64,000 nt of DNA, from the NCBI GenBank assembly GCA_014727915.1, contig WJMO01000005.1, positions 352,001-416,000 on the forward strand, given 5' to 3'. The stretch comes from Candidatus Altiarchaeales archaeon. Lineage in GTDB: Archaea > Altiarchaeota > Altiarchaeia > IMC4 > SCGC-AAA252-I15. Each line of letters starts with the position of its first letter. The first letter of the stretch is position 1. Both the position numbers and the translations under genes were made by a program. The notes under the pieces were generated by a model that did not search any database, was not told where the DNA came from, and was given only the letters and a program-made list of their open reading frames with translations. Of the stretch, positions 19,837 to 38,269 are shown piece by piece.

Positions 19837-20100
19837 TTGGCTGCTGCGATGCTCTTCAACTTTGTTCCTCTCCTTATTGTCGGGTTGGTGCTCTTTGTCA
19901 TCGCTGCCTTTGTCGAGTTGGTTGTGAAATTCCAATGGTATAAGCTCCACGCCCACTTCTTCAGGAACATGTGCTGTTCCATATACCTGTTCACCCTTGC
20001 TACGCTGGTGCTCCAGTCATTAGATGAGGGTTCCTGGGGTTCAGCAGCCATCGCAGGAGCTTTAGCGTTGCCAGCGATATACCTGATGAGGAAGAGGTGA
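19837..20100 (+). CDS. Small membrane protein (possibly 5'-truncated)
   Basis: Three hydrophobic segments and a basic tail; start uncertain. Confidence 0.45.
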   Translation: MAAAMLFNFVPLLIVGLVLFVIAAFVELVVKFQWYKLHAHFFRNMCCSIYLFTLATLVLQSLDEGSWGSAAIAGALALPAIYLMRKR

Positions 20101-20144
20101 TGGGGTTTTTTAATTTATACTGTGCTGGCTAATACATTTTCATA

Positions 20145-20627: not shown

Positions 20628-20632
20628 GAAGC

Positions 20633-21031
20633 TTATGCTAGCCTCATCTTCTCGATGATCCTGTCGTTCACTTCGCCTCTTTTCACTATCAGCATGTTCT
20701 TCTCCTTTTTCGTTACGTAGTTGGTGTCAATCTCTACTTTGGCGGTGAACACCTTCAATCTGCCAGTGTGGAGCAGTCTCAACAGGTCCTTCACCTTCTT
20801 TATCTCTTTCTTGTCTGTTCGTGTGGTTTTGGCCATGTATTTTATGTTTTTCTTGTAGAACTTCACCGTCTTATCCTGCTCCCCCTGGTCGAATCCAACG
20901 TTGAACTTTATTCCTGCCCGGGTGTACAGCGCCCTGATCTCATTAACAGCATCCCCCTCCAGTGAAACGTCAAAGACAAGGAACGTGTACTCTTTCACTC
21001 CCCTCCAAAAGAATGAACCCAACAATCCCAT
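20633..21031 (-). CDS. Hypothetical Lys-rich protein
   Basis: 132-aa ORF starting MGLLGSFF; no motif recognised. Confidence 0.6.
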   Translation of the reverse strand: MGLLGSFFWRGVKEYTFLVFDVSLEGDAVNEIRALYTRAGIKFNVGFDQGEQDKTVKFYKKNIKYMAKTTRTDKKEIKKVKDLLRLLHTGRLKVFTAKVEIDTNYVTKKEKNMLIVKRGEVNDRIIEKMRLA

Positions 21032-21122
21032 CCCTTAATCATTCGAATCCACGCATTTAACCTCGAATATCCCATTTTCATCTATTATGGCCTTGCCCGC
21101 TCCCAGAGACCCGGATGCACTG

Positions 21123-21362
21123 TCAAACATCTTTCGCCGGTGCACCCTCATTTTTACCTTTAAACCACCCTATCAACGCCAAAATCCACAGGAGCATAAT
21201 CCCAACTGCCAATATCACCAAGGGTGAGTCACCGATACCGTCCACCACAAACGAATAACCCACATAGACGGTGGCAGCCACCAACAGCAACAAAGTAACA
21301 TAACCCTGACCATCCCTCATCTTCACCTTAACCGTCTTCTTATGAAAATCCCACAAACCCAT
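21123..21362 (-). CDS. Small 2-TM membrane protein
   Basis: 79 aa with two hydrophobic helices. Confidence 0.6.
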   Translation of the reverse strand: MGLWDFHKKTVKVKMRDGQGYVTLLLLVAATVYVGYSFVVDGIGDSPLVILAVGIMLLWILALIGWFKGKNEGAPAKDV

Positions 21363-21781
21363 AATAGAACAATTGAAACCAGATAATTAAAATAGTTTAC
21401 AAAAAAATATAAAATATTATGAAAAAACTTCAAACAACTTAAACTTTCCCCACATACCTTATACAGAAGTGTTTAGAATTAAACACAACCGTAAACTCCG
21501 AGAAACCGTTTTGCTCCTGATTAGAATAACTTGGTATTGAAAACAATAATTGGGGGTTATCAATTCCTGCCTCTTTGCCGCCTTGATGCCGATTTGAATT
21601 TTGTTTGGGTCTGATGAGACACTCAGAAGACATTCGTCTTCTGGTGCGCCAAATGTCCTAAAAAGCATTTGAGCGTTCGAACTCACGGCCAAATATATTT
21701 TTATCAGTTATTTAAAATTTTTTATCAATAGTTTTTAAAATATTCTAAATAATTAAAAAAATAGAAGTTTGGGATAGTTTT

Positions 21782-23160
<1,379 letters not shown>

Positions 23161-23726: not shown

Positions 23727-24788
23727 TCATCCGATAATGGCCTTTGCGAAATCGGCAGGGGTTACGCCAGGCGATTGGACCGCGGACGAACTGTAGATAT
23801 TTCCTATGGCATCGGCTATCGCTGTCTCATCCGCCTTCACACCAGCCAACGCCTCCTCGATCTCGCCCACAACGTCGGGGTAGATGAAGAAGTCACCGGT
23901 CAACACAACCTCGGAGATCACATCATCCTTCAACGATGAGGATGCTCTTATCAATCCTCCGGGGGACTTATGGGTTGACTCCACCACGTGAACGCCCTCC
24001 GATATCTTCACCTTCCTGAATCCGGGATGCCGGCGTTTCACCTTGTTCAACCACTCATCGGACACGAAATACCCATCCAAACCCTCAATGATCTGAAGTT
24101 CCTCGGGTGACAACTCCCCACGGACCAGCTCCACATCCAATGTCTCCTTGAACTTGGAGATCAAAACCTCCTTCACCTCATCACGCGGAGGAACGCTGCC
24201 AAGCTCCCGTTTCACGGTCGTCAGATACTCGCTCATGGACTTGTACACCTTATCCCTGAACTTCTCATCCGGCACCTTCAACAACCTGGACATGGCCTCA
24301 TAGTTGAAGTCCAAGATCAGACTGCCCACGACAACAACACAGTCGCCCATGGTCGCGGCCCCCGTACCCCCGATCTTCCTGTTATCCACCTGCAGGTCGT
24401 TCACAGGCCGGTGAAAAGCCTCAATACCCAACGCCCTATACGCCTCCACAGGAGCCTTCAAAAACCTGTTATAGACCTCGGTGATATCCCGTGGCGCATG
24501 GTCCTTGTGGAACATGATATGGTAGAACAGCTGGTCACGGTCCAGGTACACCGCACCCCCGCCCACACGACGACGGTACACTGGAAGACCCATATCCCTA
24601 CAATAGTCCAGGTCCACCTCCTTCTCCAGCTCCTGGTGCATGCCAACGCACACATACGGGTCACCGGGGCTCAACAGCGAGATCGTATCCTGCCCCCCCG
24701 CGCTCACGCTCTCCGCAACCCCGTGGTAGATGGTCTGACTCCGCAGGGCAGACACAAAACCCAAATCCAACAACCTTACCTCTCTCAT
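23727..24788 (-). CDS. lplA: Lipoate-protein ligase (LplA with C-terminal LplB domain; sLpl(AB)-like)
   Basis: RRRVGGGAVYLD, NDLQVDNRKIGGTG, C-terminal HKSPGGLIR..TGDFF; N-terminal SQTIYHGVA. Confidence 0.9.
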   Translation of the reverse strand: MREVRLLDLGFVSALRSQTIYHGVAESVSAGGQDTISLLSPGDPYVCVGMHQELEKEVDLDYCRDMGLPVYRRRVGGGAVYLDRDQLFYHIMFHKDHAPRDITEVYNRFLKAPVEAYRALGIEAFHRPVNDLQVDNRKIGGTGAATMGDCVVVVGSLILDFNYEAMSRLLKVPDEKFRDKVYKSMSEYLTTVKRELGSVPPRDEVKEVLISKFKETLDVELVRGELSPEELQIIEGLDGYFVSDEWLNKVKRRHPGFRKVKISEGVHVVESTHKSPGGLIRASSSLKDDVISEVVLTGDFFIYPDVVGEIEEALAGVKADETAIADAIGNIYSSSAVQSPGVTPADFAKAIIG

Positions 24789-24798
24789 AATATCACCA

Positions 24799-25629
24799 TT
24801 AAAACAACGTTTGAGCGGACGTCAACCCCATCGCAATGTACTGGACGCCCAAGAGGAGCAACACAACACCCCCAACATACCTTACGAACGTTAGCACATT
24901 GCTCCGCATGTACCTCTGAGCAACCTCGACAGAACCCCGCGCCAACATGATCATCAATGTCGGGGGTATGAAAGCGCCCACAGCGAACGAGGTGATGATG
25001 AGCACCGCCTTGCCCAGGGAGAACAGCAGGGAAGGCGCGGAGGCCGCGTTCGCCAACGCAACAGCGGAGATGGGAGCCAAGAACACGGACGCCTCCACCG
25101 TGCACACGAACCCCGTGACAGTCCCCCAGACCATGTACTCGACAGGGTGGTTCACGCTGAACACCGGCAGCTTCAAGTATTTGAACACCTGGGAGGTGAT
25201 GTAATGGCGGATGTCCAACAAACCAAGGAGGTCCGCGGACAACGCCACCATGAACACCCCCGCTACCAGTATGGCCACGGGTGCGATGGTATAGGATATG
25301 ACACTGCCAGCCAGGCCGGTGACAATGCCCAAGACTATGAAGGTTATGAACCTGCCCGCGGTGAACAACACCGACGAATAGAATGCCGCGCGGACGTTCT
25401 CCTCCCCCCCGGCGATATACGCAGCCAATGGCACACCACAGACAGGGCAGGATATCAGCCCGAACAACAGCCCCAGCCAGAGAGCCCACAAAGCCGAAGA
25501 ACCCGCGTTCTCCATGGCAACCGCCATATACGGCTGAAGCACGCCCATGGACTCGAGCATCCACCCGCGCACAAATACTACCAACGCAACGAACAGGAAC
25601 ACCAGAACCCCGGCCAACACCTTATTCAT
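24799..25629 (-). CDS. CcdA/DsbD-like transmembrane thiol-redox protein
   Basis: Polytopic; GLISCPVCG in the first half and GFVCTVE in the second half; GR motif. Confidence 0.65.
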   Translation of the reverse strand: MNKVLAGVLVFLFVALVVFVRGWMLESMGVLQPYMAVAMENAGSSALWALWLGLLFGLISCPVCGVPLAAYIAGGEENVRAAFYSSVLFTAGRFITFIVLGIVTGLAGSVISYTIAPVAILVAGVFMVALSADLLGLLDIRHYITSQVFKYLKLPVFSVNHPVEYMVWGTVTGFVCTVEASVFLAPISAVALANAASAPSLLFSLGKAVLIITSFAVGAFIPPTLMIMLARGSVEVAQRYMRSNVLTFVRYVGGVVLLLLGVQYIAMGLTSAQTLF

Positions 25630-26413
25630 CAGCCCTCACCTCCGCCTCCTCTTTGGGCTCGTACTTCTCCAGGAGCCTGTCCAGCTCGCTGAAGCAGGAC
25701 ACGATCAAGGATGAGACGGATATGAACTTGGTCTCCACACCCTGCTTGCCGCCTATCTGGGAGAGTAGGGCCTCGCAGCCGGCGCAGGCCAGCGGGCACA
25801 GGTCCGCCCCCGTCGCCCCCGCGTCCGACACCTTCTTCTCAGCCAACGCGGTCATGGCAGCCCCGTCAGACCCCGCCCCGCAGCAGGCGCAGGGGTCGCT
25901 CATCTCCACATAGGAGCCGCCAAGGTAATCCACAATAACCTCGTACAAGTCTTTGATCTTCACGCCCAAGGTCCGGTTCAAGTGGCACGAGTAATGGCCT
26001 GTGACCTTAACGGAGGAGTCTAGCTTCCTGTCAACCAACTTGTCCATCTCCCCCGACCTGATCAGCGCGTACGCGTACTCGAGGATGTTAACGGACTTGA
26101 ACCCCCGCCGCCTGAACTCCGGGTGCTCGCCCAGGTATGCGGTGCAGGAGGCGCAGGTGAACAACACATCCTTTATGCCCAACCTGTTCAACTGGTTCAA
26201 ATTGTACGTCAAGCACTCTTCCGCACCCTCCTCGTCGCCTATGCCCACGGAACCGTATCCGCAGCACCGCTCGTTGGGTATGGTCTTATACTCCTCAAGT
26301 ATGCCCGCTTCAACGGCCTTGTCCAACAATACGTAGGTGGACAGCCTCAACGTCTTCAGCATGCGCGAGGTCGTGCAGCCCTCGAAGAACACAAGCTTCC
26401 GTGGAATCCTCAT
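25622..26413 (-). CDS. HdrB-like protein with two CCG domains
   Basis: FEGC..RCCG..CASC and HYSCH..CCG..CAGC. Confidence 0.85.
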   Translation of the reverse strand: MRIPRKLVFFEGCTTSRMLKTLRLSTYVLLDKAVEAGILEEYKTIPNERCCGYGSVGIGDEEGAEECLTYNLNQLNRLGIKDVLFTCASCTAYLGEHPEFRRRGFKSVNILEYAYALIRSGEMDKLVDRKLDSSVKVTGHYSCHLNRTLGVKIKDLYEVIVDYLGGSYVEMSDPCACCGAGSDGAAMTALAEKKVSDAGATGADLCPLACAGCEALLSQIGGKQGVETKFISVSSLIVSCFSELDRLLEKYEPKEEAEVRADE

Positions 26414-26997
26414 CTCCTGAATTTCAACCCCTCCCTAAGTTTTTTCAAGTCCTCAATGGCTTCCCCGCCAACTTCAGCCTTCTTCAAATCGTCCTCGAAG
26501 GGGTTGAAGAACTTCCTCAGCCGCTGGGCCTTGGTTATCCACATCCACGGCAGGTTGAAGCCCGAGCCTTTTATCCTGCGGACCACGGCCTCGTAGGTCC
26601 TCTTCATCTGCGGGTTCGGTATGGCCTGGATGCCGCTGATGGCATCATCCTCCAACGCACCCTTCAACTCCCTGTTGTAGATGTCCATGCACAGCTCGTC
26701 CACGCCCAGCTTCCTCGGGCACCGCTCCACGCAGGCTCCACAGCCGCTGCACAACTCGACATGGCCTTTAACGGCGTCATCGTATCGCCCGCTCTTCACA
26801 GCCACCATGATGTCCTTGGGCCCTATGTAGTCGCCTTCAACCGCGACGATGGGGCAGACCGCCCGGCACTGCTGGCACTCCATGCACAACACCGCGTTGC
26901 TCTGGTTACGCAGCGCAATATACGCTATCATGCCCAAGGGCACAAGCGTCAGGGCCGCAGCCACCCCAGCCGTTGAAACAAGCGTGAAAACCATCAT
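26410..26997 (-). CDS. Membrane-anchored HdrC-like 2x[4Fe-4S] protein
   Basis: N-terminal TM helix; CMECQQCRAVCP and CSGCGACVERCP. Confidence 0.85.
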   Translation of the reverse strand: MMVFTLVSTAGVAAALTLVPLGMIAYIALRNQSNAVLCMECQQCRAVCPIVAVEGDYIGPKDIMVAVKSGRYDDAVKGHVELCSGCGACVERCPRKLGVDELCMDIYNRELKGALEDDAISGIQAIPNPQMKRTYEAVVRRIKGSGFNLPWMWITKAQRLRKFFNPFEDDLKKAEVGGEAIEDLKKLREGLKFRR

Positions 26998-27800
26998 GGA
27001 AACCTCAATATCTTCTTCGGGCAGGCGTCAACGCATTTCATGCACTTTATGCACTCCGAATCCGTTATCGCCTTTCCCTCCTGTATGTACTTCTCAGCCA
27101 CCAGAACGTCCATGGGACACTCCTTCTCGCAGTTCAGGCATTTGATGCACTCGCCGGCAGAGCGTATGGGAAGCAGATGAAACCTGGCGAACAATGCGAG
27201 GAAGCCTCCGACGGGACAGAGGTAACCGCACCACATCTTCCGCCCGTGGAAGAACACCAGCAGCGAGACGATAGCGAACACGGGCACGGCCATGAATATG
27301 ACATGGCCCGTCAACCCCTTGAACAGCACGCCCGCGGGGCAGTAGTCGCAGAAGGACGTGTAACCCACGAGGAACGAGAGTATCAGGAACCCGAACAACA
27401 CCACATACTTCAGGTTCACGTCCTTCAGGTCATCAGGGGCCTTGTGGGCTCCCTTGAAGGGTGAGACTTTTTCAACGGCATCGAGGAAGGTGCCGAAGGG
27501 GCACAGCCAACCGCAGAACATCCTCCCAGAAAGCATGGCAAAGCATGTGAAGGCAGCCACGATGATATACGGTGATATGGTGGGGAGTGTTGTTGAAGGG
27601 TTCAACAGGTCAACCCGCTCCAAACCCAGGTATACGATGGACTCTGCTCCGGCCCGGGCGAACAAATCCTGCAAGTGCCAGAAGGGGTCCAGCCAGCAGA
27701 CGCCCATGGGGTTGTTGAACAGGAGATAGGTCAACGCGATGGTCAAGGCTACCGCAGCCGCCTGAACACCCAACCGCATGTGAGCTTTCTTCACGTTCAT
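26994..27800 (-). CDS. NapH/MauN-like polytopic Fe-S membrane protein
   Basis: GRMFCGWLCPFG, FCDYCPAG, WCGYLCPVG and two C-terminal CxxCxxCxxxCP. Confidence 0.88.
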   Translation of the reverse strand: MNVKKAHMRLGVQAAAVALTIALTYLLFNNPMGVCWLDPFWHLQDLFARAGAESIVYLGLERVDLLNPSTTLPTISPYIIVAAFTCFAMLSGRMFCGWLCPFGTFLDAVEKVSPFKGAHKAPDDLKDVNLKYVVLFGFLILSFLVGYTSFCDYCPAGVLFKGLTGHVIFMAVPVFAIVSLLVFFHGRKMWCGYLCPVGGFLALFARFHLLPIRSAGECIKCLNCEKECPMDVLVAEKYIQEGKAITDSECIKCMKCVDACPKKILRFP

Positions 27801-28144
27801 TCTACCGTATGCTTGTCCCTCTCCTCTCTGATGTTCAACCTGGTCAAAACCTTCGTGGGGCAGCCTTCAACGCAGAGGCCGCACCTGTCCCAGTCGAACC
27901 GGTCCTCCTCCTCCACCCATGATAGGCAGGCGCTCCGGTTGATCACCGGGAACCCCCGCCCGTCCACTGACATGGCGTTCACGGGGCACTTGCTGATACC
28001 ATAGTATTCCCTCGGGCACAGGCCCTCGAAGGACGTCGCGTCCTGCCTGGCCAACAATAGCCCCACACCCACGACTACCGCCAGCATGAACAACAGGCCC
28101 ATCCACCTGTTACCCCCCCGCCTGGTAGCGTCGCGTATCTCCAC
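27797..28144 (-). CDS. Membrane-anchored ferredoxin-like protein
   Basis: TM helix; LCP..KCPVNAM..AC..CGLCVEGCP; start may be at the second Met. Confidence 0.75.
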   Translation of the reverse strand: MEIRDATRRGGNRWMGLLFMLAVVVGVGLLLARQDATSFEGLCPREYYGISKCPVNAMSVDGRGFPVINRSACLSWVEEEDRFDWDRCGLCVEGCPTKVLTRLNIREERDKHTVE

Positions 28145-28147
28145 CTT

Positions 28148-28804
28148 CTAATCCTCCCTGTACAACAGCCTCGTCGGGCACACCACAGTGCAGACCCCGT
28201 CTTCGATGCACTTGTTCCTGTCTATGACCGGCTTCACCCTCCCATACTCGCCTTCGTCCTTCACCAGCTCCAAGGCGAACACGGGACAGATGGTCTCCCC
28301 CTGCTTCCCGAGGAGGCACCGTTCCAACCCAAAGTTCCTGCTGGCGTCCATGGCCTCCAATAGCACGGGGTTGAACCTGTAACCCACATCGGGCTTCACG
28401 ATCTCGGAGACCTTATCCCCGTTGAATAACACGATGAACGACGCGTCCTCGCCGTCGGAGATGAACATCTCCCCGCTAACGACCCGCTTGAACCTCACAA
28501 CATGCCCGCCCACGTCATCGTAGGCGTAGACGGAAAGGTACTGGCCCTCATACTCTGACCCTATCCCCTCGGACAGGGACACCCTCACACCCCCGTCAAC
28601 CGCTTCGATCGAATAGGATTCCCTCGGGAACGGCGGCCTGACCTCCGGCCTGCCGGCGTAGGCGCTGCCTATAGTCTTCCCCAGCACCTTCAAACCTCCC
28701 CCGCTCATCGCCGCGCTCGCCAGGTAGACCATGACCACAACCACGGCTATGAAAGCCAGTATGTTGTTCCTATTCATTGAAGACACCATCCTCCTTAAGA
28801 TCAC
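28148..28804 (-). CDS. Membrane-anchored protein with C-terminal ferredoxin-like domain
   Basis: TM helix, beta-rich middle, RCLLG..ICPVFAL..KCIEDGVCTVVCP; start may be 28777 (MNRNN). Confidence 0.75.
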   Translation of the reverse strand: MILRRMVSSMNRNNILAFIAVVVVMVYLASAAMSGGGLKVLGKTIGSAYAGRPEVRPPFPRESYSIEAVDGGVRVSLSEGIGSEYEGQYLSVYAYDDVGGHVVRFKRVVSGEMFISDGEDASFIVLFNGDKVSEIVKPDVGYRFNPVLLEAMDASRNFGLERCLLGKQGETICPVFALELVKDEGEYGRVKPVIDRNKCIEDGVCTVVCPTRLLYRED

Positions 28805-29246
28805 GTATCGTATCCGTTATGGGCAGCTCGATGGGGCAGCTGCGCTCGCAGGCGCCCTCCAACGGGTCGTACTTGGCAGCGTCTTTGACCCTGAGCATGC
28901 GAACCTCCACGACCAAACCCTCGCCGAACCGTTCTATTGCCTCTCCAGCGGTCATCCGCTCCCCATCCACCTCAACGGTCATGTCCGGGTCCGTGCTATA
29001 GGCCTCGTCCAACCTTAGCTGGAGGTTCCGGGCGCTCATGTAGATGTCCGGGTCGTCCACGGCCGCCGCCACGACGAACTTCGCCACATCGTAGCCGAGG
29101 GGGCAGTTGAGGTTGCAGGCCCTGCACTGGTAGCAGGTCAGCGACCACGGATGCCCCGAACTATAGGCTGTGTAGGCGAACAATGCCAGGATTGCGGCTA
29201 TCACAAAGAACGCCACCACGTTGAAACGTCGATTCCCCTCTTCCAT
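28770..29246 (-). CDS. Membrane-anchored protein with a split ferredoxin motif
   Basis: TM helix; CYQCRACNLNCP near the N-terminus and ACERSCP near the C-terminus. Confidence 0.75.
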   Translation of the reverse strand: MEEGNRRFNVVAFFVIAAILALFAYTAYSSGHPWSLTCYQCRACNLNCPLGYDVAKFVVAAAVDDPDIYMSARNLQLRLDEAYSTDPDMTVEVDGERMTAGEAIERFGEGLVVEVRMLRVKDAAKYDPLEGACERSCPIELPITDTIRDLKEDGVFNE

Positions 29247-29250
29247 CTTC

Positions 29251-29400
29251 CTAGAGTATGTACATCAACAGGCCCACAACGGCCCCGCCCAATAGTCCCT
29301 CCAAGCTCACGGGGCTCGTGTTGAATGATATGTTGAACATGACACCAACCGCTAAACCGGCTCCAAGGTTCAAGGCCATTTTCATCCTAGTCTCGTCCAT
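29251..29400 (-). CDS. Small Gly-rich 2-TM protein B (49 aa; not in ORF track)
   Basis: Hand translation MDETRMKMALNLGAGLAVGVMFNISFNTSPVSLEGLLGGAVVGLLMYIL; fills the operon gap with 3-4 nt spacers. Confidence 0.8.
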   Translation of the reverse strand: MDETRMKMALNLGAGLAVGVMFNISFNTSPVSLEGLLGGAVVGLLMYIL

Positions 29401-29403: not shown

Positions 29404-29562
29404 TCATAGGAGGGCCATCAGCAAGCCCACGAGCAAGCCGCCCATCACACCTCCCCTGTCCTTCCAACTGTGATCCAATGAAATGTTTATCATTATCCCA
29501 GTGACCAAACCCACCCCGAGGGCCGCCGCAAACAGTTCAACCGTGTATCCAACCATCTTCAT
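29404..29562 (-). CDS. Small Gly-rich 2-TM protein A (52 aa; not in ORF track)
   Basis: Hand translation MKMVGYTVELFAAALGVGLVTGIMINISLDHSWKDRGGVMGGLLVGLLMALL; ATGA overlap with the upstream stop. Confidence 0.8.
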   Translation of the reverse strand: MKMVGYTVELFAAALGVGLVTGIMINISLDHSWKDRGGVMGGLLVGLLMALL

Positions 29563-30881
29563 ATGAACCCCAACAAGCTTATCGTCAACGCCGCGAACCC
29601 GGTCCCAACCAGTATGCCCACCTGCTGGGGCCTCCCCGACACGCCGATGGCCGTGCCCAGGTTGCCCTCGCCGATGCCGCCGATGCCGCCGATGGGCGAG
29701 GGTCCGCAGGATGCCGCCGCATTAACGATGAAGGCGGTCAACACTATGGGAACCGCGAAGGCGCTTCCAGTAACATCTCCCAGGCGGGTGCCGAACATGA
29801 GCACCCCCGGTATCAAGGCCATCCCGATGATCCTCCCGCAGGGCATGGGCAGTATGGTGGGCAGGTTCACCAGCAGCACAGCCACACCCACGTAGCCGAG
29901 GGGCGTCAACGCCACATTCTCCAGCAATTCGATCAGGACGTCGAAGCTGCCCACCGCCACCAGCGCACCCGCCATTATGAAACCTGATATCATGGCCATC
30001 ACCGGGTGCAATATCACGCCCGCTACCAGGTCCTGTATCGAAGTTTCCGAGATCACCATCACGACCAATACTATGAGCATGAGTACCGTCTGGATCGGGA
30101 CCGGCGGCTTCAACACGAACACCGAGGTTATGGTCAGCAGGAATATGCCCAACGCCAGGTAACCGGACCTGGGGATCTTCTCAGTCTTCTCCTTTTTCTC
30201 CTCAGCCTCCTCCTCAACGTTCAACAATGACTCGGACGGCATTATCCTGTATATGAACCTGGTTGACAGCATGGTAACCGCCGTTATCAGCATTATAGCT
30301 ATCTGCTGGGCGTTCCCGAAGGATCCCAGCTCGTAGCCGCCCATCCCCTCCCCGACCATGCCGATGCCGCCGATGGGCGAGGGTCCGCAGGATGCCGCCG
30401 CATTAACGATGAAGCCGAAGACGATGATGCTAGCCAGCAGGGGGCTCTTCTTCGCCTTCGCGATGTTATGGCCGAACAGTATCGCCGCGGGTATGAGCGC
30501 GGCAGCCATTATCCTCCCGCAGGGCATCGCAAGTATCGTGGGAGTGTTCACCAGCAACGCGACCGTGCCCGTCATCCCCACTGGTGTCCTGCTCGCCCGC
30601 TCGAGCAGGTGGATCGCCGCCCGGAAGGCTCCCGCAGCCTCTAGGGCTCCGGCAACCAGGAAACCAGCTATCAACGCGGTGATCGGGTGCAGGTACAGGT
30701 TGGACATGAGCTCCCTGACGCCCACGCTGTTGCCTGACATGAACGCCAATACAACCAGGACAATCGATGATAGGATCAGCGCTGACTGTATCGGGAGGAT
30801 GTCCTGCCGTATCCACCCCCGGAGCGATGCTACTATCACCCCGAAGAAGATTATCAACCCGGTCAAGCCCAGCAAGTCCAT
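29559..30881 (-). CDS. Internally duplicated polytopic membrane protein (ion-transporter-superfamily-like) with four symmetric Cys
   Basis: Each half carries LHP, LVNxPTILxMPCGRI and FIVNAAASCGPSPIGGIG; roughly 12-14 TM segments. Confidence 0.75.
   Translation of the reverse strand: MDLLGLTGLIIFFGVIVASLRGWIRQDILPIQSALILSSIVLVVLAFMSGNSVGVRELMSNLYLHPITALIAGFLVAGALEAAGAFRAAIHLLERASRTPVGMTGTVALLVNTPTILAMPCGRIMAAALIPAAILFGHNIAKAKKSPLLASIIVFGFIVNAAASCGPSPIGGIGMVGEGMGGYELGSFGNAQQIAIMLITAVTMLSTRFIYRIMPSESLLNVEEEAEEKKEKTEKIPRSGYLALGIFLLTITSVFVLKPPVPIQTVLMLIVLVVMVISETSIQDLVAGVILHPVMAMISGFIMAGALVAVGSFDVLIELLENVALTPLGYVGVAVLLVNLPTILPMPCGRIIGMALIPGVLMFGTRLGDVTGSAFAVPIVLTAFIVNAAASCGPSPIGGIGGIGEGNLGTAIGVSGRPQQVGILVGTGFAALTISLLGFI
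29679..30414. repeat. 55-bp perfect intragenic direct repeat (29679-29733 and 30360-30414)
   Basis: GCCGATGCCGCCGATGGGCGAGGGTCCGCAGGATGCCGCCGCATTAACGATGAAG occurs twice, identical. Confidence 0.9.
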
Positions 30882-30882: not shown

Positions 30883-31245
30883 CTAGAACCTCACCTTCCC
30901 CACTCTGTTGGCTATGGTCCTGGAGCCGATTTCGGTCAATCCCACCCTGGAGCCGACGGAGAGCTTGTCTATGCAGATGTTGCAGGGGCTTGTCTCAGCG
31001 GATACTACACTACCATCCTCCAATTCGACTTTCAAGGGCAGGCTGGCCTTGCCGGACTGGTCGCCCGTAGAACATGACATGCACCCGTTCACGGAGCAGG
31101 CTTTCACACCCTCCAAACCCAGCGAGAGTATAACACCTGTCCGCTGGGGTCTGAATAGGGTCTTGAAGTTCAGGTAGACCAGGTAGATGCCCAGGGCTAT
31201 CAAAAAACCGAAAACGCCCTGGTTTACCGCTTCGACCGGGTTCAT
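30883..31245 (-). CDS. Membrane-anchored Cys-rich small protein (120 aa)
   Basis: True start MNPVEAV (31245, or GTG 31251); TM helix, then CSVNGCMSC and SPCNIC; the ORF-track extension overlaps gcvH. Confidence 0.75.
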   Translation of the reverse strand: MNPVEAVNQGVFGFLIALGIYLVYLNFKTLFRPQRTGVILSLGLEGVKACSVNGCMSCSTGDQSGKASLPLKVELEDGSVVSAETSPCNICIDKLSVGSRVGLTEIGSRTIANRVGKVRF

Positions 31246-31247: not shown

Positions 31248-31676
31248 TCACTTGGCGTGCTTCTGGACTTCGGCCTTCTGCCACTCCACGGCGGCGTCGC
31301 CCTTCATGAGGTTGTCCACCTCGCCGGGGTCGCTCATCTCGACCTCGAAGATCCAGCCCTCCCCGTAGGGGTCGCTGTTTATCTTCGAGGGGTCGTCGTA
31401 TAGGTCCTGGTTCACCGCTGTTATGCTCCCCGAAACTGGCGCGTAGAGGTCGCCCACCCATTTCTTCGTCTCTATGGTGCCGACCTTGTCGTCCTGTTTG
31501 ACCTCGTCGCCCTCGAAGGGCATCATCACATAGCTTATCTCTCCGGCCAGCTTCTGCGTGAAGTCTGTGGCGCCGACCTTGCACTTGTTGCCTTCGACCT
31601 TCGCCCAGTAGTGCTCCCTGTGATAGTAGAGCTCTTCCGGGAGGTCGTATCCTTCAACGTCAACCATCCAAATCAC
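31248..31676 (-). CDS. gcvH: GcvH-like lipoyl carrier protein (LbpA-like KW motif)
   Basis: LYYHREHYW, VGATDF, GTIETKKWVGDLYAPVSG (lipoyl Lys before Trp), INSDPYGEGW. Confidence 0.88.
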   Translation of the reverse strand: MIWMVDVEGYDLPEELYYHREHYWAKVEGNKCKVGATDFTQKLAGEISYVMMPFEGDEVKQDDKVGTIETKKWVGDLYAPVSGSITAVNQDLYDDPSKINSDPYGEGWIFEVEMSDPGEVDNLMKGDAAVEWQKAEVQKHAK

Positions 31677-31683: not shown

Positions 31684-32520
31684 TTATACTGGGGTGTAAG
31701 CGTATGCCTTGCCAAACGGCCTTGATGAACTGGGAGCTATCTTCGTGAACTTCTCTCCCTTCAGGAGCTCCGCTGGCACGTTGAAGTGGTCGCAGAACTT
31801 CTTCAATATCTCGTTCAACTCCCTCTGGTCCTCCTCGCTCATCTCCTTATTGGACGCGTATATGCCCAGCAGCTCCTCGCGGACGTCCCCGCGCATGTAT
31901 ATCTTCCCCCCGTGGATGCCGGCTCCAAGGTCTGTCTGGGCCAGTTCACACTCCATGAGCTTGATCTTCTTGGGGTCGATGTTCTTCTTCTCCATGGGCT
32001 TGCTCCGGTCCTTTATCGCATCTGTGAAGTCCAGTCCAAGGACTGCTATGATCCCCCCTGCCATGTACTCTCCACAGTACTGTTTCACGCTGCCGCCGTA
32101 TACTATGGTGGGCACGTTCTCCTTGAACTCCTTCATGTGTATGCCGATCCTGGATCCGCCGTTGCCCATTATGTATATCTCGCCGCCGCGGGCGCCCATG
32201 CCCGTAATGTCCCATGAGTCCCCGTAGACGATTATCTCCCCCTTGTTCAGCGTGTTCCCGAGGAGGTATTCGCTGCATCCGTGGACTATCACCTTCGGGC
32301 CTTCCATGAACACCCCCAAGTCCAAGCCCGCGTCGCCGAACAGTTCCAAGGTTATGTCCTTCTTTATCCCGGCTCCGATGAACCGCTGGCCGTTGACGTT
32401 CTTGACCACGATGTGCTCCCAGCCGTCGGCTACCGCCCCCCGGATCCTCTTGTTCAACACCCGGTAGTCCATGTATTCGCCGTTCTCCCGCGCGTTTATT
32501 ATGAACTTGTTCTCTGACAT
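31684..32520 (-). CDS. Glutamate synthase GXGXG-domain subunit (GltB3)
   Basis: NVNGQRFIG, repeated GXGXG beta-helix units, GEYMAGG; start MSENKF. Confidence 0.88.
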   Translation of the reverse strand: MSENKFIINARENGEYMDYRVLNKRIRGAVADGWEHIVVKNVNGQRFIGAGIKKDITLELFGDAGLDLGVFMEGPKVIVHGCSEYLLGNTLNKGEIIVYGDSWDITGMGARGGEIYIMGNGGSRIGIHMKEFKENVPTIVYGGSVKQYCGEYMAGGIIAVLGLDFTDAIKDRSKPMEKKNIDPKKIKLMECELAQTDLGAGIHGGKIYMRGDVREELLGIYASNKEMSEEDQRELNEILKKFCDHFNVPAELLKGEKFTKIAPSSSRPFGKAYAYTPV

Positions 32521-32525
32521 ATTCT

Positions 32526-34055
32526 TCACTCTCCCGCGTGCTTGACACCCAGTATCTGGGCCTCGTGGGGGTTGGGTCCGATGTACCTCAGCCTGCCCCT
32601 GTTGCCTATGAAGGACTCGACCGCGTCGATGCCCATTATGCCCAATACCTCCTCCAATTCCGCGTGCCAGGCGTTGAACAGGTTCACAACCCTCTGGGTG
32701 GCCCATTCCACGTCCACCCGCTTGCCCAGGTCCGGGCGTCCGGTGGCAATGCCCCAGCTGCACTGGCCCCTGTGGCACTGCTGGCATACGGTGCAGCCCA
32801 TGGCCATCAGCACCGAAGTGGATATCATCCCGCAGTCCGCCCCCAAGGCGAGCATCTTGACCAGGTCCGCGGAGCTCCTCAGAGAACCGCCAGCGACCAA
32901 TGTTACCTTGTGCCTGATGCCCTGGCGGGTCAGGTGCCGGTCCGTCGCGGCGACAGCCAGCTCTATGGGTATGCCCGTGTTGTCCCTCACAACCCTCGGT
33001 GCGGCTCCCGTGCCCCCGCGCAAACCGTCTATGGTGATGAAGTCCGCGTTCGCGTGCACTATCCCCGAGGCGATGGCAGGCGCGTTGTTGACGGCCGCGA
33101 TCTTCACACCCACAGGGACCTTGTAGTCTGTGGCCTCGTGCAATGCGGCTATCAGCGTTTTCAAGTCTTCAATTGAGTATATGTCGTGCTGTGGGTTGGG
33201 GCTCAAGGCGTCGGTACCCTCGGGTATGCCCCTGGTGTCGGCGATCATCTCGTTCACCTTCTCGCCTGGCAGCTGCCCTCCGTGTCCCGGCTTAGCGCCC
33301 TGCCCGATCTTGATTTCCAACGCCGCCACGTCCAGGTAGTCCGGCCCCACTCCGAAACGCCCGGATGCGACCTCGCTGACTATGTTGGCCTTGTAGGGTC
33401 TTAGGCTGACGTGCAGTCCGCCCTCTCCTGTCCCCATCAGCGTGCCCACCTTCTCGGCGGCCCGAATCATTGAGATGTAGGCGTTGTATGACAGCGATCC
33501 CAGGCTCATGTGGCCTATGAACAATGGCATGGACATCCTGACGTTAGGGGGTATGTCCTCGACCTCGTAGCCTTTCTTCATGTCCTTGACGTCCAGCCGG
33601 TCGATCTTCTTCCCCAGGAATGTGACCGTCTCCACAGGCTCTCTCAGCGCGTCTATGGCCGGGTTGGTGACCTGGCATGCGTCCCATACGAGGTTGTCGA
33701 ACACGGACGGTTTAGGCTGGTCGCAGCCCATCCCCGTCAGCAATACCCTGCCGGTCCGGGCGTTCTCGTAGATCACTCTGTGGTAGTATGTGGTCCAGTT
33801 CGCGTGGGGTGAATAGGTTCCCGGGTGGTTCCGGACGGTTATCGCGTCCACGGGGCAGAATACGGTGCACCTCTGGCATGCGACGCAGTTGCTGTCCTTT
33901 GAAACATAGGGTTTCTTCTCGTCTTTATCCCATTTTATGCAGTCGTAGGTGCAGTTCACAGCGCAACGCCTGCACTTGGTGCACTTGTCCAGGTCTATGT
34001 CGACCTTGAACTTGGCTAGCATAGTGTCCTGTATGGTCTTCAACTCATGGTTCAT
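32526..34055 (-). CDS. gltB: Archaeal glutamate synthase FMN-binding subunit with N-terminal 2x[4Fe-4S] (GltB2)
   Basis: MSLGSLS, GTGEGG, VASGRFGV, EIKIGQGAKPGHGGQLPGEKV, HDIYSIEDL, CTVCQQCHRGQC; start MNHELK. Confidence 0.93.
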   Translation of the reverse strand: MNHELKTIQDTMLAKFKVDIDLDKCTKCRRCAVNCTYDCIKWDKDEKKPYVSKDSNCVACQRCTVFCPVDAITVRNHPGTYSPHANWTTYYHRVIYENARTGRVLLTGMGCDQPKPSVFDNLVWDACQVTNPAIDALREPVETVTFLGKKIDRLDVKDMKKGYEVEDIPPNVRMSMPLFIGHMSLGSLSYNAYISMIRAAEKVGTLMGTGEGGLHVSLRPYKANIVSEVASGRFGVGPDYLDVAALEIKIGQGAKPGHGGQLPGEKVNEMIADTRGIPEGTDALSPNPQHDIYSIEDLKTLIAALHEATDYKVPVGVKIAAVNNAPAIASGIVHANADFITIDGLRGGTGAAPRVVRDNTGIPIELAVAATDRHLTRQGIRHKVTLVAGGSLRSSADLVKMLALGADCGMISTSVLMAMGCTVCQQCHRGQCSWGIATGRPDLGKRVDVEWATQRVVNLFNAWHAELEEVLGIMGIDAVESFIGNRGRLRYIGPNPHEAQILGVKHAGE

Positions 34056-35182
34056 CCTAGGTTCACCCCCTCGAACACTTCCCCGGTCCCGCGGGTCTTG
34101 ATGCCCTCCTTTGACACTATGACCGGCACGCCCGGGTTGGGCTGCCAGTAGTCGCCAGTGTCGCATACGGTGCGTATCGAAGACAGCTCGCTGGCGCAGT
34201 AGAACGTGTTGCTGTCCCCGTCGTATGCGGCGATCATGGGCCTCAGCTTCTTCCGGTCCGTGTGGGCTATCATCGTCGGCTCCGGGTCGTCCGTAGTTAT
34301 CACGATCGAGAAGGGGCCGTTGGCCAGTGCGCTCCGGTAGGTCTGCCTTATGTAATTCATCCACCGCTTTCTCTCGGGACTCATGAGGTTGATGTCCCTC
34401 CAGTAGGGGGGTGCTATGGCGGTGGTCGCTATCTGGTGGACTATCCCCTTCGGGTATCCGCTCCTCCGTATTATGTAATCTACTATGTAGGCGAGGACTT
34501 CAGTGTCCGTCCTCAGCATGCACTGGTATCCCCGTTCTTCGAGGTAGTTTACGTTCGTCCCGTAGGATGTGATCTCTCCGTTGTGGACGACCGAGGTTCC
34601 GAGTATGTTGAATGGGTGAGCGCCGCCCCACCACCCCGGCGTGTTGGTGGGGAACCTGGAGTGGGCGCTCCACATGAACGCTTTCATCTCGTCTATCCTG
34701 TAGAATTCGGCTATGTCCGCGGCCCAGCCGTTTCCTTTGAACACGGCCATGTTCTTGCCGCTGCTCATGCAGAAGGCCCCGTCAATGGTGGAGTTCACGT
34801 GCATGACAACGTCCTTGATGTGCTCGTCGGCGTCCTCCCTCTTGGTGTTCACGAAGAACCTCCATATCTGCGGAGGTTCCCTTATCCTCTCCGTCTCCCT
34901 TATGGGGACTTCCTCGTCGAAGATCACGTCCGTGTGGGCGTTTAGGTACTCCTCCACCCTCTGTTTAGTGGGTGCCTTACCCGGCACTTCTTCGAGTATG
35001 AGCTGTATGCAGTAGTCGTCCTCGTGCTTTGGGAATATGCCGTGGGCTGCGAAACCCGCTCCCAGACCGTTCTCCCGTTCCTTCTGGAGGCGTATCATGT
35101 CCGCTATCTGCTTCCCCTCCACGGGCTTCCCGTCTATGTTGAACAGTGCCGCTATCCCGCACGCGTCATATACTCGGTTCAT
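34052..35182 (-). CDS. Glutamate synthase class II glutamine amidotransferase subunit (GltB1)
   Basis: DACGIA near N-terminus, RENGLGAG, HSRFPTNTPGWWGGAHPF, VHNGEI, TDTEV, LRP; start MNRVYD. Confidence 0.92.
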   Translation of the reverse strand: MNRVYDACGIAALFNIDGKPVEGKQIADMIRLQKERENGLGAGFAAHGIFPKHEDDYCIQLILEEVPGKAPTKQRVEEYLNAHTDVIFDEEVPIRETERIREPPQIWRFFVNTKREDADEHIKDVVMHVNSTIDGAFCMSSGKNMAVFKGNGWAADIAEFYRIDEMKAFMWSAHSRFPTNTPGWWGGAHPFNILGTSVVHNGEITSYGTNVNYLEERGYQCMLRTDTEVLAYIVDYIIRRSGYPKGIVHQIATTAIAPPYWRDINLMSPERKRWMNYIRQTYRSALANGPFSIVITTDDPEPTMIAHTDRKKLRPMIAAYDGDSNTFYCASELSSIRTVCDTGDYWQPNPGVPVIVSKEGIKTRGTGEVFEGVNLG

Positions 35183-36492
35183 TTTTTCTTCTTCTTGCTC
35201 TTTTCGATTATCCTGGTTATCTCCTCTGGGTCTGCCGGTTTCAACGGGTCCATCCCCAGGCGCCTCCTTATCATCTCGTTCTGTCGCATCCCGTATCCTG
35301 TGGACTTGATCATGTCCATCTTCATATGGATCACATCGGGTGCCTTGCCATTCTCCACCGCGACCTCCCTCAATTTCAGGAACAGGTCCTTCAAGCCTAT
35401 GTTGTTGGGGCATCTTGCCATGCACTTCCCGCATTGCAGGCAGTGCCATATGAGCGGGTTCTCTATGGCCTCGTCCAGCTTGCCTTCTTTCAGGAGGTCC
35501 ACGATCTCCAGCGGGTCGAAGGGCTTCCCCGTATCCTCTGTTATCTGGGCTTCCGTGCACTCCAGCCTGCATGCTTCGCAGTGGCTTATGAGGTCGTTGT
35601 AGTCGAAGTACTTCTTCACTTCCTCAAGTTTGGCTCCTTCCTCGTATTCGACACCGATTTTCTCGAGGGCTGGTTGCACGCTGGTCGCGTGCATCTTCAA
35701 TGCCATGTCCTCTGGACTTAACCCCAGTGCCAGTCCTATGAGCTCTGTGACGTAGAAGACGGGTATCGCGTGCTCTCTCATCTCCTTGGAGAGCCGGTCG
35801 AACTGCAGGAAGCATGTGGGGCATGCTGTGACCATGCAGTCCGCGTTCTCCTTTGCATGTGCCAGCTTGTTCTTCAGCAGCTTGTCCGCGTCTTCGCTGT
35901 TGAATGCTGCTATGGGTACTCCGCAGCAGTCCATCTTGTACGGGTAGTCGGCGGTTTCAGCCCCTAGTTTCCCGACGATCTCGTCGAGGGATGTCGGGGT
36001 GTCCGGGTGGTCGCTTTTGACTGCCTGGGGCCATAGGGCGTGGCATCCGTAGTGGACTGCGACCTTCAGGCCCTTCAGGGGCTTTTTCACCTGGCTGTTT
36101 ATGACGTTGATCTTGTTGTGTATGGCTTCTAGTATGTGTTCGACTTTCACGCTCTTCTCGTATCTCTCGGATTCCTTGAGCATGTCGTTTATGTGCTTTC
36201 GGGTGTCGGGGTATTCCAGTTCCCTGTGGGCTTTTTCGAATGTGTTGTAGCATCCGCTGCAGGCCACGAGGATGTGGTCTCCTGCGAGTGCCATGTTGCG
36301 CGCGCTTAGTGCGAGTGCTGCGTCGTGGTCGTATGCTTTCGCGGACACTGGGTCTGGGCAGCAGGTCCATCCGTCTATCTCGTCTGCTTGCAGTCCAATC
36401 TTTTCGAGGGCCTTGTTTGTTGTTAAGATCAGGTATGGTAGTGTGTTGCTTATGGTGCAACCCCAGTAGATCGATGTTTTTTTCAATTTCAC
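35179..36492 (-). CDS. HdrB-HdrC fusion (heterodisulfide-reductase-like)
   Basis: WGC..WTCCP..ACSGC and VHYGCH..CCG..ACPTC HdrB domains, then HCEACRLEC..WHCLQCGKCMARCP HdrC-like domain; start GTG 36492 or TTG 36486. Confidence 0.9.
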   Translation of the reverse strand: MKLKKTSIYWGCTISNTLPYLILTTNKALEKIGLQADEIDGWTCCPDPVSAKAYDHDAALALSARNMALAGDHILVACSGCYNTFEKAHRELEYPDTRKHINDMLKESERYEKSVKVEHILEAIHNKINVINSQVKKPLKGLKVAVHYGCHALWPQAVKSDHPDTPTSLDEIVGKLGAETADYPYKMDCCGVPIAAFNSEDADKLLKNKLAHAKENADCMVTACPTCFLQFDRLSKEMREHAIPVFYVTELIGLALGLSPEDMALKMHATSVQPALEKIGVEYEEGAKLEEVKKYFDYNDLISHCEACRLECTEAQITEDTGKPFDPLEIVDLLKEGKLDEAIENPLIWHCLQCGKCMARCPNNIGLKDLFLKLREVAVENGKAPDVIHMKMDMIKSTGYGMRQNEMIRRRLGMDPLKPADPEEITRIIEKSKKKKK

Positions 36493-36719: not shown

Positions 36720-37259
36720 GTGAAAAACAGGCTTTCCGATAATGAGAAGCGGGTTCTGACCTGCCTCATAAAAGACGGCCGGACCACATGCACGGAGATG
36801 GCCAGGGAACTGGGCATAACCAGCCAGGCTGTGGGGAAGATCAAGGAGAAGCTGGAACGGGAGGGGTTCATAAGCGGGTATACCGCGGTCGTCGACCAGG
36901 AACAGCTGGGAATCACCGTGCTCGCCATAGCGTTCTTCAGGTTCAAGTCCGGAGCATGGACCAAGATGGAAGAGAAGGACATACTCGACAGGGTCAAGGG
37001 ACCCCACCTCATAAACGTCTACAGGGTCCCAGTCGGCGACGTCACCCACATGGTAGTCTACGGATTCCGGAACATAAAGGAGATGGACAACTACTTCCAC
37101 CGCCTCCAGACCGAACGGGAGCACATAAGCGAACTCAAGAGCCTCTACGTCCTATCGACGGGGAGCGTCATGAAGGATTCACCGAACGAGCTCCTGCTGA
37201 AGATAATAGACGAGATGGGCCACGAGGAAATGGCAAGGCCCGAGACACCGTCAGCCTAG
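36720..37259 (+). CDS. Lrp/AsnC-family transcriptional regulator (paralog 2)
   Basis: Highly similar to 23181-23723 (GITSQAVGKIK, RVKGPHL, THMVVYGFR, LQTEREHISELK). Confidence 0.9.
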   Translation: MKNRLSDNEKRVLTCLIKDGRTTCTEMARELGITSQAVGKIKEKLEREGFISGYTAVVDQEQLGITVLAIAFFRFKSGAWTKMEEKDILDRVKGPHLINVYRVPVGDVTHMVVYGFRNIKEMDNYFHRLQTEREHISELKSLYVLSTGSVMKDSPNELLLKIIDEMGHEEMARPETPSA

Positions 37260-38176
37260 CCCCAGTAGGGGTTCTTCACGTACTTGAACGCGTTCAAACC
37301 CGCGAGCCCTCCCTCGCCTATGGCCTGGGGTATCCTTATCCACTTGCCGACGATGTCGCCGGCCGCGAACACGCCCTCGATGCTCGTCCTCAGGTCGGAG
37401 TCGACGACGATCTTCTCCTGGTCGTTCAGCTCCACGCCGATCCTGTTGAGGAACTCCGTGTTGGCGGCGGTCCCAAGGCTGAACAGCACGTGATTCACCT
37501 CCCAGACCGTCTTCGAATCGTCCTTGTTGTTCAATAACGTGACCTTCTCCACCTTACCGTCTCCGTCGATGTCGAAGACCTCGGTGTTCCACAGCACGTT
37601 CACGCACTCGTCCTTCACGCACGCCACGTTCTTGTCCGTCGCCCGGAACGCGTCACGCCTGTGTATGATCGTAACATCCGCGCCGTTCCTCTTCAGCTCC
37701 ACCGCGCACTCCACGGCAGTGTCACCCCCGCCGACGACAATTATCCTCTGGCCATTGTACCTTGCAGGGTCGGGGAGGCAGAAGTTCACGCCTGACAGGT
37801 CCTCGCCCTTCACGCCCAGCTTCCGAGGCGAACCCAAACCCACGGCCAATATCACAGCAGAGCACGCGTATTCGCCCCGGTTGGTCTTCAACTTCAGGCC
37901 TTCCTTCAGCTTCTTCACGTCCGAGACGGTCTCGTTCTCGTTTATGTCCACGCCCTCCTTCAATGCGTGGTCTACCATCATCTTCGATACTTCAGCGCCG
38001 GTCTTCTCGTAGATGCCAAGGTAGTTGTCGACCTTCTTCCAAGGGTACTGGTTCGTCAGCGCCCCCCCGGCATTCCCTGATTCGACGACCAACGTCTTGA
38101 GCTTATAATATGCCGTCGTGATCGCGGCAGACAATCCTGCGGGCCCGCCCCCGACAATGACAACGTCGTAGTCCAT
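37256..38176 (-). CDS. TrxB-fold FAD/NAD(P)H oxidoreductase lacking CxxC (ferredoxin-NADP reductase-like)
   Basis: GGGPAG, GGGDTA, HRRDAFR, FAAGD; VNFCLPD in place of CATCDG. Confidence 0.8.
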   Translation of the reverse strand: MDYDVVIVGGGPAGLSAAITTAYYKLKTLVVESGNAGGALTNQYPWKKVDNYLGIYEKTGAEVSKMMVDHALKEGVDINENETVSDVKKLKEGLKLKTNRGEYACSAVILAVGLGSPRKLGVKGEDLSGVNFCLPDPARYNGQRIIVVGGGDTAVECAVELKRNGADVTIIHRRDAFRATDKNVACVKDECVNVLWNTEVFDIDGDGKVEKVTLLNNKDDSKTVWEVNHVLFSLGTAANTEFLNRIGVELNDQEKIVVDSDLRTSIEGVFAAGDIVGKWIRIPQAIGEGGLAGLNAFKYVKNPYWG

Positions 38177-38269
38177 TGTAACAGATAAGATGAAAGTCAC
38201 GGTATAAAAATCCTATTTTCACTGTGAAAACGTCCTGCTTATAATCTACTATCGGTAATATCTACCAAC

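Follow-up and report, generated by a model that had tools for sequence, protein, structure and literature searches.

What is the task of a membrane protein that has the build of a solute carrier, possesses exactly four cysteines and is encoded among ferredoxins? The question is raised by a 64,000-nucleotide (nt) stretch of DNA from a Candidatus Altiarchaeales archaeon (contig WJMO01000005.1 of assembly GCA_014727915.1, forward-strand positions 352,001 to 416,000; the whole stretch is referred to here as the window). The minus strand at 29559..30881 encodes a duplicated, hydrophobic membrane protein of 440 amino acids (aa) with a predicted ion-transporter fold and cysteines C121, C165, C348 and C392, here termed IT-4Cys. 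Based on its predicted structure, its conservation and the genes that accompany it, we propose IT-4Cys to be the membrane-embedded core of a new module for electron transfer across the membrane, in which the cysteines hold a redox centre, a reading that we regard as evenly poised between right and wrong.

The IT-4Cys protein, its family and its predicted fold

The four named residues, whose codons lie at window positions 30519-30521 (C121), 30387-30389 (C165), 29838-29840 (C348) and 29706-29708 (C392), are all the cysteines present in IT-4Cys. Each half of the protein carries the motif N.PTIL.MPCGRI (residues 112-124 and 339-351) and the stretch FIVNAAASCGPSPIGGIG (residues 157-174 and 384-401); the 440-aa translation thus confirms a preliminary description of this DNA, made from the letters alone, which had noted both repeated motifs and the lack of further cysteines. 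When the halves were aligned with each other, 84 of 173 positions were identical (48.6%). The corresponding local BLOSUM62 score of 406, compared with 43.8 ± 7.3 (maximum 79) for 200 shuffles, places the internal duplication far beyond chance. At the DNA level, the 54 nt coding for FIVNAAASCGPSPIGGIG are identical between the halves (54/54), which looks like recent intragenic gene conversion in this Altiarchaeales genome. The surrounding 72 nt (window 29665-29736 and 30346-30417) share 92% identity, and the equivalent stretches in two relatives (loci L001 and L004) are only 76-77% identical.

In a first alignment, all four cysteines stayed unchanged across 23 of 23 diverse homologs, and a larger one showed the same for 122 of 122 homologs, some with identity as low as 25%, with P120, G122, E178, R350 and several glycines likewise unchanged; conservation of the cysteines, on which the preliminary description had made its proposal depend, is thereby borne out. 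Of 8000 candidates scored in a word-indexed search, 445 proteins passed E ≤ 0.001. When 1.84 billion cluster representatives were searched exhaustively with phmmer, the same threshold left a small family of 62 (29 at E ≤ 1e-30). Among these are forms of half length, and in others an N-terminal half is joined to a beta-helix/NosD-like or CARDB domain. Altiarchaeota is the label on the best matches, which reach 81% identity; the genome of the window itself holds a single copy.

Automated annotation had been expected to call such a protein a citrate transporter. This guess turned out wrong: the sources mostly say 'hypothetical', and among the 120 homologs listed, those with a name were all 'hypothetical protein' with one exception ('MFS family permease'), with a precomputed CitMHS domain (PF03600) on three of the 120 listed clusters. 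IT-4Cys itself matches CitMHS in Pfam at E = 8.3e-6 with 25.6 bits, short of the gathering cut-off of 31.9 bits and hence outside the family. A scan against NCBIfam gave no meaningful match, and the look-alikes of IT-4Cys in the ESM Atlas were its own 'hypothetical' cluster followed by SLC13/CitMHS permeases. Literature searches, which covered article text, found no description of the family; likewise, the main text of an eLife survey of flavinylation-linked transmembrane systems contains neither 'CitMHS' nor 'citrate transporter' nor 'HdrC'.

AlphaFold2, run on the 122-sequence alignment, gave a model of IT-4Cys with a mean predicted local distance difference test score (pLDDT) of 89.2 and a predicted template modelling score (pTM) of 0.90. 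By DSSP assignment of this model, C121 and C348 are located in short hairpin turns (MPCGR), i.e. between helices 102-117 and 122-144 and between helices 329-343 and 349-371, respectively. C165 and C392 mark the onset of the unwound stretch (AASCGPSP) in broken helices formed by residues 148-163/173-181 and 376-390/400-408. A Foldseek search against the PDB produced 34 matches at E ≤ 0.001, all of them ion-transporter-superfamily carriers and including VcINDY (template modelling score 0.67), Pho90, NaS1, ArsB and TRAP proteins. In an all-against-representatives alignment (VIA-align), the nearest structure was the arsenite carrier ArsB (Z 24.2; 396 residues aligned at 4.3 Å and 16% identity), followed by VcINDY (Z 23.1, 14% identity) and SiaQM (Z 20.3, 12% identity), below which stood unrelated helical proteins with Z of 6 or less. 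As modelled, IT-4Cys has the fold of the ion-transporter superfamily (DASS/ArsB/CitMHS/DctM), with inverted repeats, re-entrant hairpins and broken helices; the preliminary description had assigned it to the same superfamily, and these structural matches agree. Neither the Foldseek nor the VIA-align listing contained an Nqr or Rnf chain, an absence that excludes no family, and the Pfam scan of IT-4Cys at E ≤ 0.01 gave no match to PF02508 (Rnf-Nqr). Neither DsbD nor DsbD_2 matched IT-4Cys itself.

In carriers of this fold, two hairpins and two broken helices come together as the site for ion and substrate, with polar Na+- or substrate-binding motifs, such as SNT in DASS proteins, at the hairpin tips and helix breaks. 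In VcINDY, the Na+ ligands at hairpin tip and helix break are presumably about as far apart in sequence as the two cysteines within each half of IT-4Cys, which are spaced by 44 residues. An ordinary secondary carrier of the citrate/dicarboxylate, sulfate or arsenite type, in which the cysteines are incidental, would suit this fold, the weak CitMHS match and the language-model look-alikes, but has to be reconciled with a CitMHS score below the Pfam cut-off, with a family profile to which no protein of solved structure matched in sequence at E ≤ 10, with four cysteines that do not vary in any of 122 homologs, with the tightness of a family of 62 clusters among 1.84 billion, and with the iron-sulfur (Fe-S) genes described below. 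We consider it extremely improbable.

Ferredoxin partners and a candidate electron path

Relatives of IT-4Cys were gathered in 57 loci from more than ten phyla, and the neighbours in the window served as tblastn queries against them. The loci stem from archaea (Altiarchaeota, Thermoplasmata/Methanomassiliicoccales, Halobacteriota, Hydrothermarchaeota and Undinarchaeota) and bacteria (Deltaproteobacteria, Spirochaetota, Acidobacteria, Planctomycetota, Coatesbacteria and Clostridia). The most constant partner, present in 45/57 loci, is an HdrC-like, transmembrane (TM)-anchored dicluster ferredoxin (Fer4_8; window 26410..26997, minus strand). At least one same-strand open reading frame (ORF) with a CxxCxxCxxxC motif lies within 3 kilobases (kb) of the IT gene in 50 of the 57 loci, and such ORFs number 148 in 306 kb near the gene versus 8 in 233 kb at a distance of 4-7 kb. 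Several of the seven loci without such an ORF are truncated contigs or high-GC (guanine-cytosine) loci where the ORF filter failed, and four of the seven have a tblastn neighbour, HdrC-like in L034, L038 and L057 and HdrB-like with CCG domains in L043. Wherever flanks were available, IT-4Cys never occurred as a lone carrier gene. Given Fe-S genes within 3 kb in 50/57 loci, IT-4Cys is no stand-alone carrier, and the case that the preliminary description had named as fatal to its proposal, homologs occurring mainly as stand-alone solute transporters, is not what the loci present.

The other ferredoxin considered here, Fer158 (window 28770..29246, minus strand; 33/57 loci), is TM-anchored, carries the motifs CxxCxxCxxxCP ... 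CxxxCP and has an Fe-S domain predicted to face outward. In 27 of 29 ORFs of the Fer158 family, the anchor has two to five lysines or arginines before the TM helix and none or one after it (the exceptions being L035 and L051). TM-anchored HdrC-like ORFs show the opposite charge bias: 23 of 31 lack such residues before the helix and 28 of 31 have one to three after it, two soluble CCG/Fer4 proteins among the 33 listed having been left out of the count. Because of these opposite biases, HdrC-like proteins are predicted to be N-out/C-in, with a cytoplasmic Fe-S domain, and Fer158 proteins N-in/C-out, i.e. one predicted ferredoxin per face of IT-4Cys. A fusion of FMN_bind to the HdrC-like protein agrees with an outside N-terminus. 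Leaders resembling twin-arginine translocation (Tat) signals occur in seven Fer158-family proteins of the Thermoplasmata type, as RR[DE]F in L027, L028, L031, L032 and L045 and as RRRAF/RRREF in L055 and L057; RR flags on five high-GC Fer158 ORFs were discarded as artefacts of spurious N-terminal extensions. Between the HdrC-like protein and Fer158 there is weak similarity over the TM helix and first cysteine motif (BLASTP E 0.002). The Fer158 copies of Altiarchaeota have lost two cysteines of the second cluster motif.

In the mechanism that we propose, IT-4Cys would keep the two-inverted-repeat scaffold of a carrier, and the four cysteines at its hairpin turns and broken helices would hold a redox centre in the middle of the membrane. 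This centre would relay single electrons between the cytoplasm-facing HdrC-like protein and the outward-facing, weakly paralogous Fer158, and lineage-specific modules would plug in on either side of the core. Among possible centres an Fe-S cluster is favoured, since the partners on both faces are one-electron Fe-S carriers, and we put this assignment forward as a tentative possibility. The idea of an elevator-transporter scaffold repurposed for a metal or Fe-S centre or a thiol relay had already been voiced in the preliminary description. Its repurposed scaffold gains from the fold, the invariant cysteines and the Fe-S context; the choice among Fe-S cluster, thiol relay and metal is not discriminated by them.

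Further signs suggest a fixed complex. A mini-hairpin element recurs in many of the IT-4Cys loci. In the window it takes the form of mini-ORF 1 (29404..29562, minus strand), a 52-aa two-helix hydrophobic hairpin with G..N..GG..GG.VGLLM, whose start overlaps the IT-4Cys stop, and mini-ORF 2 (29251..29400, minus strand), a 49-aa two-helix hairpin and tandem paralogue of the first (z 12.8). The same element forms a C-terminal extension of bacterial IT-4Cys homologs, to which mini-ORF 1 aligned in 8 of 8 tested cases (z 4.6-15) and mini-ORF 2 at z 0.6-10.5. The two mini-ORFs occupy an apparent 312-nt gap between IT-4Cys and Fer158 and were probably missed by gene callers. Since an extra TM hairpin is fused in some lineages and small subunits are tightly coupled to the core in translation, this arrangement suggests a fixed complex. 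An apparent fusion of the IT protein with Fer158 in L020 (a 682-aa ORF on a high-GC contig) was rejected as a presumably spurious out-of-frame extension by frame arithmetic against the 484-aa protein P0110.

Three cluster types on one core and what they say about rival roles

The loci fall into three types. The archaeal type, drawn from the window and the Thermoplasmata locus L028, has the order small Cys protein, IT-4Cys, mini hairpin ORF(s), Fer158, more ferredoxins, NapG-like, NapH-like, HdrC-like and HdrB-like. Two further ferredoxins of L028 match the NCBIfam Tat-signal model, and L028:11926-14172 (Thermoplasmata/Methanomassiliicoccales) encodes a 748-aa fusion of a NapH-like protein with a GltD-like NAD(P)H Fe-S flavoprotein, which suggests NAD(P)H to be the electron source or sink of the cluster. 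Plug-ins of the core in archaea would be HdrB-like CCG proteins and NapGH-like proteins, some of them fused to the GltD-like NAD(P)H oxidoreductase.

The HdrB-like protein (window 25622..26413, minus strand), with two cysteine-rich CCG domains, is found in 27/57 loci, all archaeal. Being of the disulfide-reductase type, it invites comparison with a transmembrane thiol-disulfide relay like DsbD/CcdA: the hairpin and helix-break cysteines of each half would form a redox-active pair, exposed to one side and then the other by the conformational change of the carrier, which would be reduced by the cytoplasmic HdrB-like protein and would in turn reduce targets outside. Such a relay would be served by the two cysteines of each inverted half, which sit on elements in contact with each other in this fold, and a thioredoxin-reductase-like gene lies near (37256-38200). 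Yet the bacterial clusters lack CCG proteins, the flanking partners on both sides are one-electron Fe-S carriers, and the separate DsbD_2 gene in many clusters would make a second relay redundant, such that we deem this role decidedly unlikely.

The second, bacterial type, seen in 17/57 loci (within L010-L030), has one or two reductive-dehalogenase-like (RDH-like) genes immediately upstream of the IT-4Cys core. Its hosts are Deltaproteobacteria, Spirochaetota and Acidobacteria (example, L026:5750-9533), in which the membrane-anchored RDH-like proteins would be the plug-in. These have three N-terminal TM helices and two Fe-S motifs each and score 158.6, 155.3 and 119.8 bits with TIGR02486 (cut-off, 160.35). 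They fit the 'hybrid putative RDases' with N-terminal TM helices described in passages of PMC6797604 (Atashgahi 2019), and they are neighbours, not homologs, of IT-4Cys. The main text of that article contains none of the terms 'ferredoxin', 'transporter', 'neighbour' and 'gene cluster', and the link between RDH-like proteins and IT-4Cys is undescribed there. In the third type, also bacterial (L033-L040), the HdrC-like protein bears an N-terminal D..[ST]GAT stretch in four loci (L033:12857-13843, L035:12198-13139, L036:13275-14342 and L037:12630-13610), with an FMN_bind match in the two that were scanned, L035 and L037. Both of these also encode, downstream, a fumarate-reductase-like flavoprotein (FAD_binding_2) with Fer2/Fer4 partners, and the flavin mononucleotide (FMN) domain, of the flavinylation type, together with this flavoprotein would be the plug-in of the third group.

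Several observations weigh against an electron-transfer core, and some of them would fit a role in supply or transport. First, the bacterial clusters contain DsbD_2, a TM-anchored DUF59/SufT-like protein and, in 6/57 loci, a PpiC/SurA-like protein, all of which look like maturation factors. Second, an N-in anchor without a clear twin-arginine leader is found in most Fer158 proteins of bacteria and Altiarchaeota, which leaves the maturation of an outward Fe-S domain without Tat unexplained. Third, carriers of this fold have two separate cation sites flanking the substrate, each made by one hairpin/helix-break pair, and the cysteines of IT-4Cys could therefore, by analogy, be two separate pairs rather than one four-cysteine site. 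Fourth, the predicted complex between IT-4Cys and Fer158, which lends the proposal weak support, is a weak pass. Its score was 0.32 (0.00 for the best of three controls), with at least 77% of contacts agreeing between runs and a partner pLDDT of at least 73 on author-built alignments; the mark applied is reached by 58/80 solved complexes and 2/110 mismatched pairs, and those that reach it with a score of 0.60 or under comprise 7 of the 80 complexes and both passing mismatches. Fifth, the archaeal NapH-like protein could itself carry electrons across the membrane. Finally, the module is patchily spread, being found in 10 of 61 genomes of the phylum and 3 of 13 high-quality ones, and is missing from a same-genus genome that is 92% complete; within the phylum Altiarchaeota it is an accessory.

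Taken up as an explanation of its own, the supply role would make IT-4Cys an elevator carrier for a thiophilic species, i.e. Fe(II), sulfide or persulfide, an Fe-S cluster or its precursor, or a soft metal. A cysteine-lined site would replace the Na+/carboxylate site, and the carrier would supply or mature neighbouring Fe-S or corrinoid enzymes, possibly beyond the cytoplasmic membrane. The carrier fold is kept in full, with ArsB as its closest structure, and YeeE/TsuA-type sulfur carriers have conserved cysteines in their pore. Besides the maturation-like genes, a small protein encoded upstream in bacteria weakly resembles a FeoB-associated Cys-rich membrane protein (E 4.5e-4; 20.8 bits against a cut-off of 27 bits), and the many N-in Fer158 proteins without twin-arginine leader would need maturation outside. 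We know, however, of no extracytoplasmic Fe-S assembly system. Moreover, it is the two membrane-anchored ferredoxins, and not the maturation-like genes, that accompany IT-4Cys constantly in archaea and bacteria alike; DUF59 and PpiC occur in the bacterial group alone, and hairpin fusion and translational coupling speak for a fixed complex. On balance, such a carrier appears unlikely to us.

The operon in the Altiarchaeales window

Returning to the window, all genes of the IT-4Cys operon lie on the minus strand. Upstream of IT-4Cys, a small Cys protein (30883..31245; 120 aa, tblastn 27/57 loci) has an N-terminal TM helix and a small Cys-bearing domain with a conserved SPCxxC motif and gave no Pfam or NCBIfam match; its stop overlaps the IT-4Cys start (TAGTATG). 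Downstream of Fer158 follow Fer218 (28148..28804; 20/57 loci), with a TM anchor, a middle part without family match and a C-terminal 4Fe-4S motif, and Fer115 (27797..28144; 9/57 loci, its L028 counterpart 11/57), a small, NapG-like 4Fe-4S protein with TM or signal anchor whose Thermoplasmata counterparts carry Tat signals. The next gene encodes a polytopic ferredoxin-type membrane protein of the NapH/MauN family (26994..27800; TIGR02163 E 6.8e-31, below cut-off; 25/57 loci). Beyond the HdrC-like and HdrB-like genes lies that of a DsbD_2 (CcdA-like) membrane protein (24799..25629; 8/57 loci, bacterial counterpart 16/57).

The redox cluster is flanked by genes for GDH (21782-23134), LplA (23727-24788) and GcvH (31248-31676). 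A split archaeal-type glutamate synthase (GATase_2, an FMN domain with Fer4, and GXGXG) occupies 31684-36492 on the minus strand, preceded by a CCG + Fer4_8 protein (35179-36492) that might be its electron-input subunit; FMN, GATase and CCG genes occur together again in L001 and L046, with GXGXG matched in L001 only. These upstream genes were rejected as conserved partners, GcvH and GltB being found in 2/57 loci each. GcvH and LplA as a marker of an sHdr/LbpA-type sulfur system were also dropped, as ordinary GcvT and GcvP genes are present elsewhere in the genome; in passages of PMC10332631, Altiarchaeota appear solely in connection with lipoate synthesis. At 20001-22000, directly downstream of the operon, the GC fraction drops to 0.443, compared with 0.54-0.60 elsewhere. 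Taken with the patchy occurrence of the module across the phylum, this drop may be the border of an island.

Known systems and the meaning of the module

If IT-4Cys is an electron-transfer core, its closest functional precedent would be NqrD-E, working in the same way on another fold. According to passages of PMC10643135, NqrD-E is a duplicated pair of inverted topology with four conserved cysteines and an intramembranous [2Fe-2S] cluster with alternating access, reached in turn by a cytoplasmic ferredoxin-like and a periplasmic FMN domain; the four-cysteine precedent invoked in the preliminary description was thus correctly stated. As in NqrD/E and RnfA/E, the four conserved cysteines of IT-4Cys, probably near the membrane centre, are contributed pairwise by two homologous halves, whose inversion is suggested by the fold. 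Gene context and charge bias add a likeness in partners, namely a TM-anchored cytoplasmic ferredoxin-like protein and outward FMN or Fe-S proteins. In some archaeal loci the IT gene is split into halves, which recalls the NqrD/NqrE pair. On the other hand, IT-4Cys has the ion-transporter fold, no sequence relation to these proteins and halves that usually form one chain, and its clusters lack NqrB/RnfD-like and NqrC/RnfG subunits, with FMN_bind fusions in some. With no PF02508 match, IT-4Cys is no member of the NqrD/E family; in the window's genome (90.6% complete), the Rnf-Nqr family gave no match either.

Other systems share parts of the picture. DASS/SLC13 (VcINDY), ArsB, CitMHS and TRAP DctM proteins have the overall fold, size and inverted repeats in common with IT-4Cys, which differs from DASS, ArsB and DctM proteins in sequence (12-16% identity), in its cysteine motifs at turns and breaks, and in the small TM subunits and ferredoxins encoded alongside. 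DsbD, CcdA and ScsB are membrane-embedded inverted repeats that use redox-active cysteines to move reducing power across the membrane. IT-4Cys is of another fold and family, with four cysteines instead of two and Fe-S partners instead of thioredoxin, and the DsbD_2 match in the operon belongs to its neighbour at 24799-25629. The NapGH, NosGH and NosR-PceC systems likewise combine an outward, Tat-exported ferredoxin with a polytopic membrane protein and cytoplasmic Fe-S domains; the archaeal IT-4Cys operons themselves include NapH- and NapG-like genes, and some IT-4Cys loci have FMN_bind fusions. However, IT-4Cys is unrelated to NapH, and bacterial clusters have IT-4Cys without NapH.

A bolder version of the proposal would make the module an Rnf/Nqr-like redox engine on an elevator-carrier fold. 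An Fe-S cluster in the transport domain would alternate between the inward HdrC-like protein and the outward ferredoxin, and where the archaeal NapGH-like path is present, electrons would cross the membrane twice (e.g. from NAD(P)H to the outside and back to the HdrB-like reductase). The conformational cycle would move Na+ or H+, giving a quinone- and haem-independent form of energy conversion patchily spread among anaerobic archaea and bacteria. We hold this version to be improbable, and any movement of ions coupled to IT-4Cys is pure conjecture.

Should the cysteines hold a redox centre, IT-4Cys would represent a second independent invention of an intramembrane Fe-S relay, so far confined to Nqr and Rnf, and, to our knowledge, the first elevator-carrier fold turned into an electron-transfer subunit. 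Cultured relatives bring genetics and biochemistry within reach: Desulfobacula phenolica and other genomes of its genus carry annotated homologs, and Desulfobacula strains are in culture. If the proposal is true, the module would be a candidate electron route for three kinds of poorly understood system, namely the hybrid membrane-anchored reductive dehalogenases of marine Deltaproteobacteria, the Tat-exported ferredoxins of Thermoplasmata and the accessory redox operon of Altiarchaeota.

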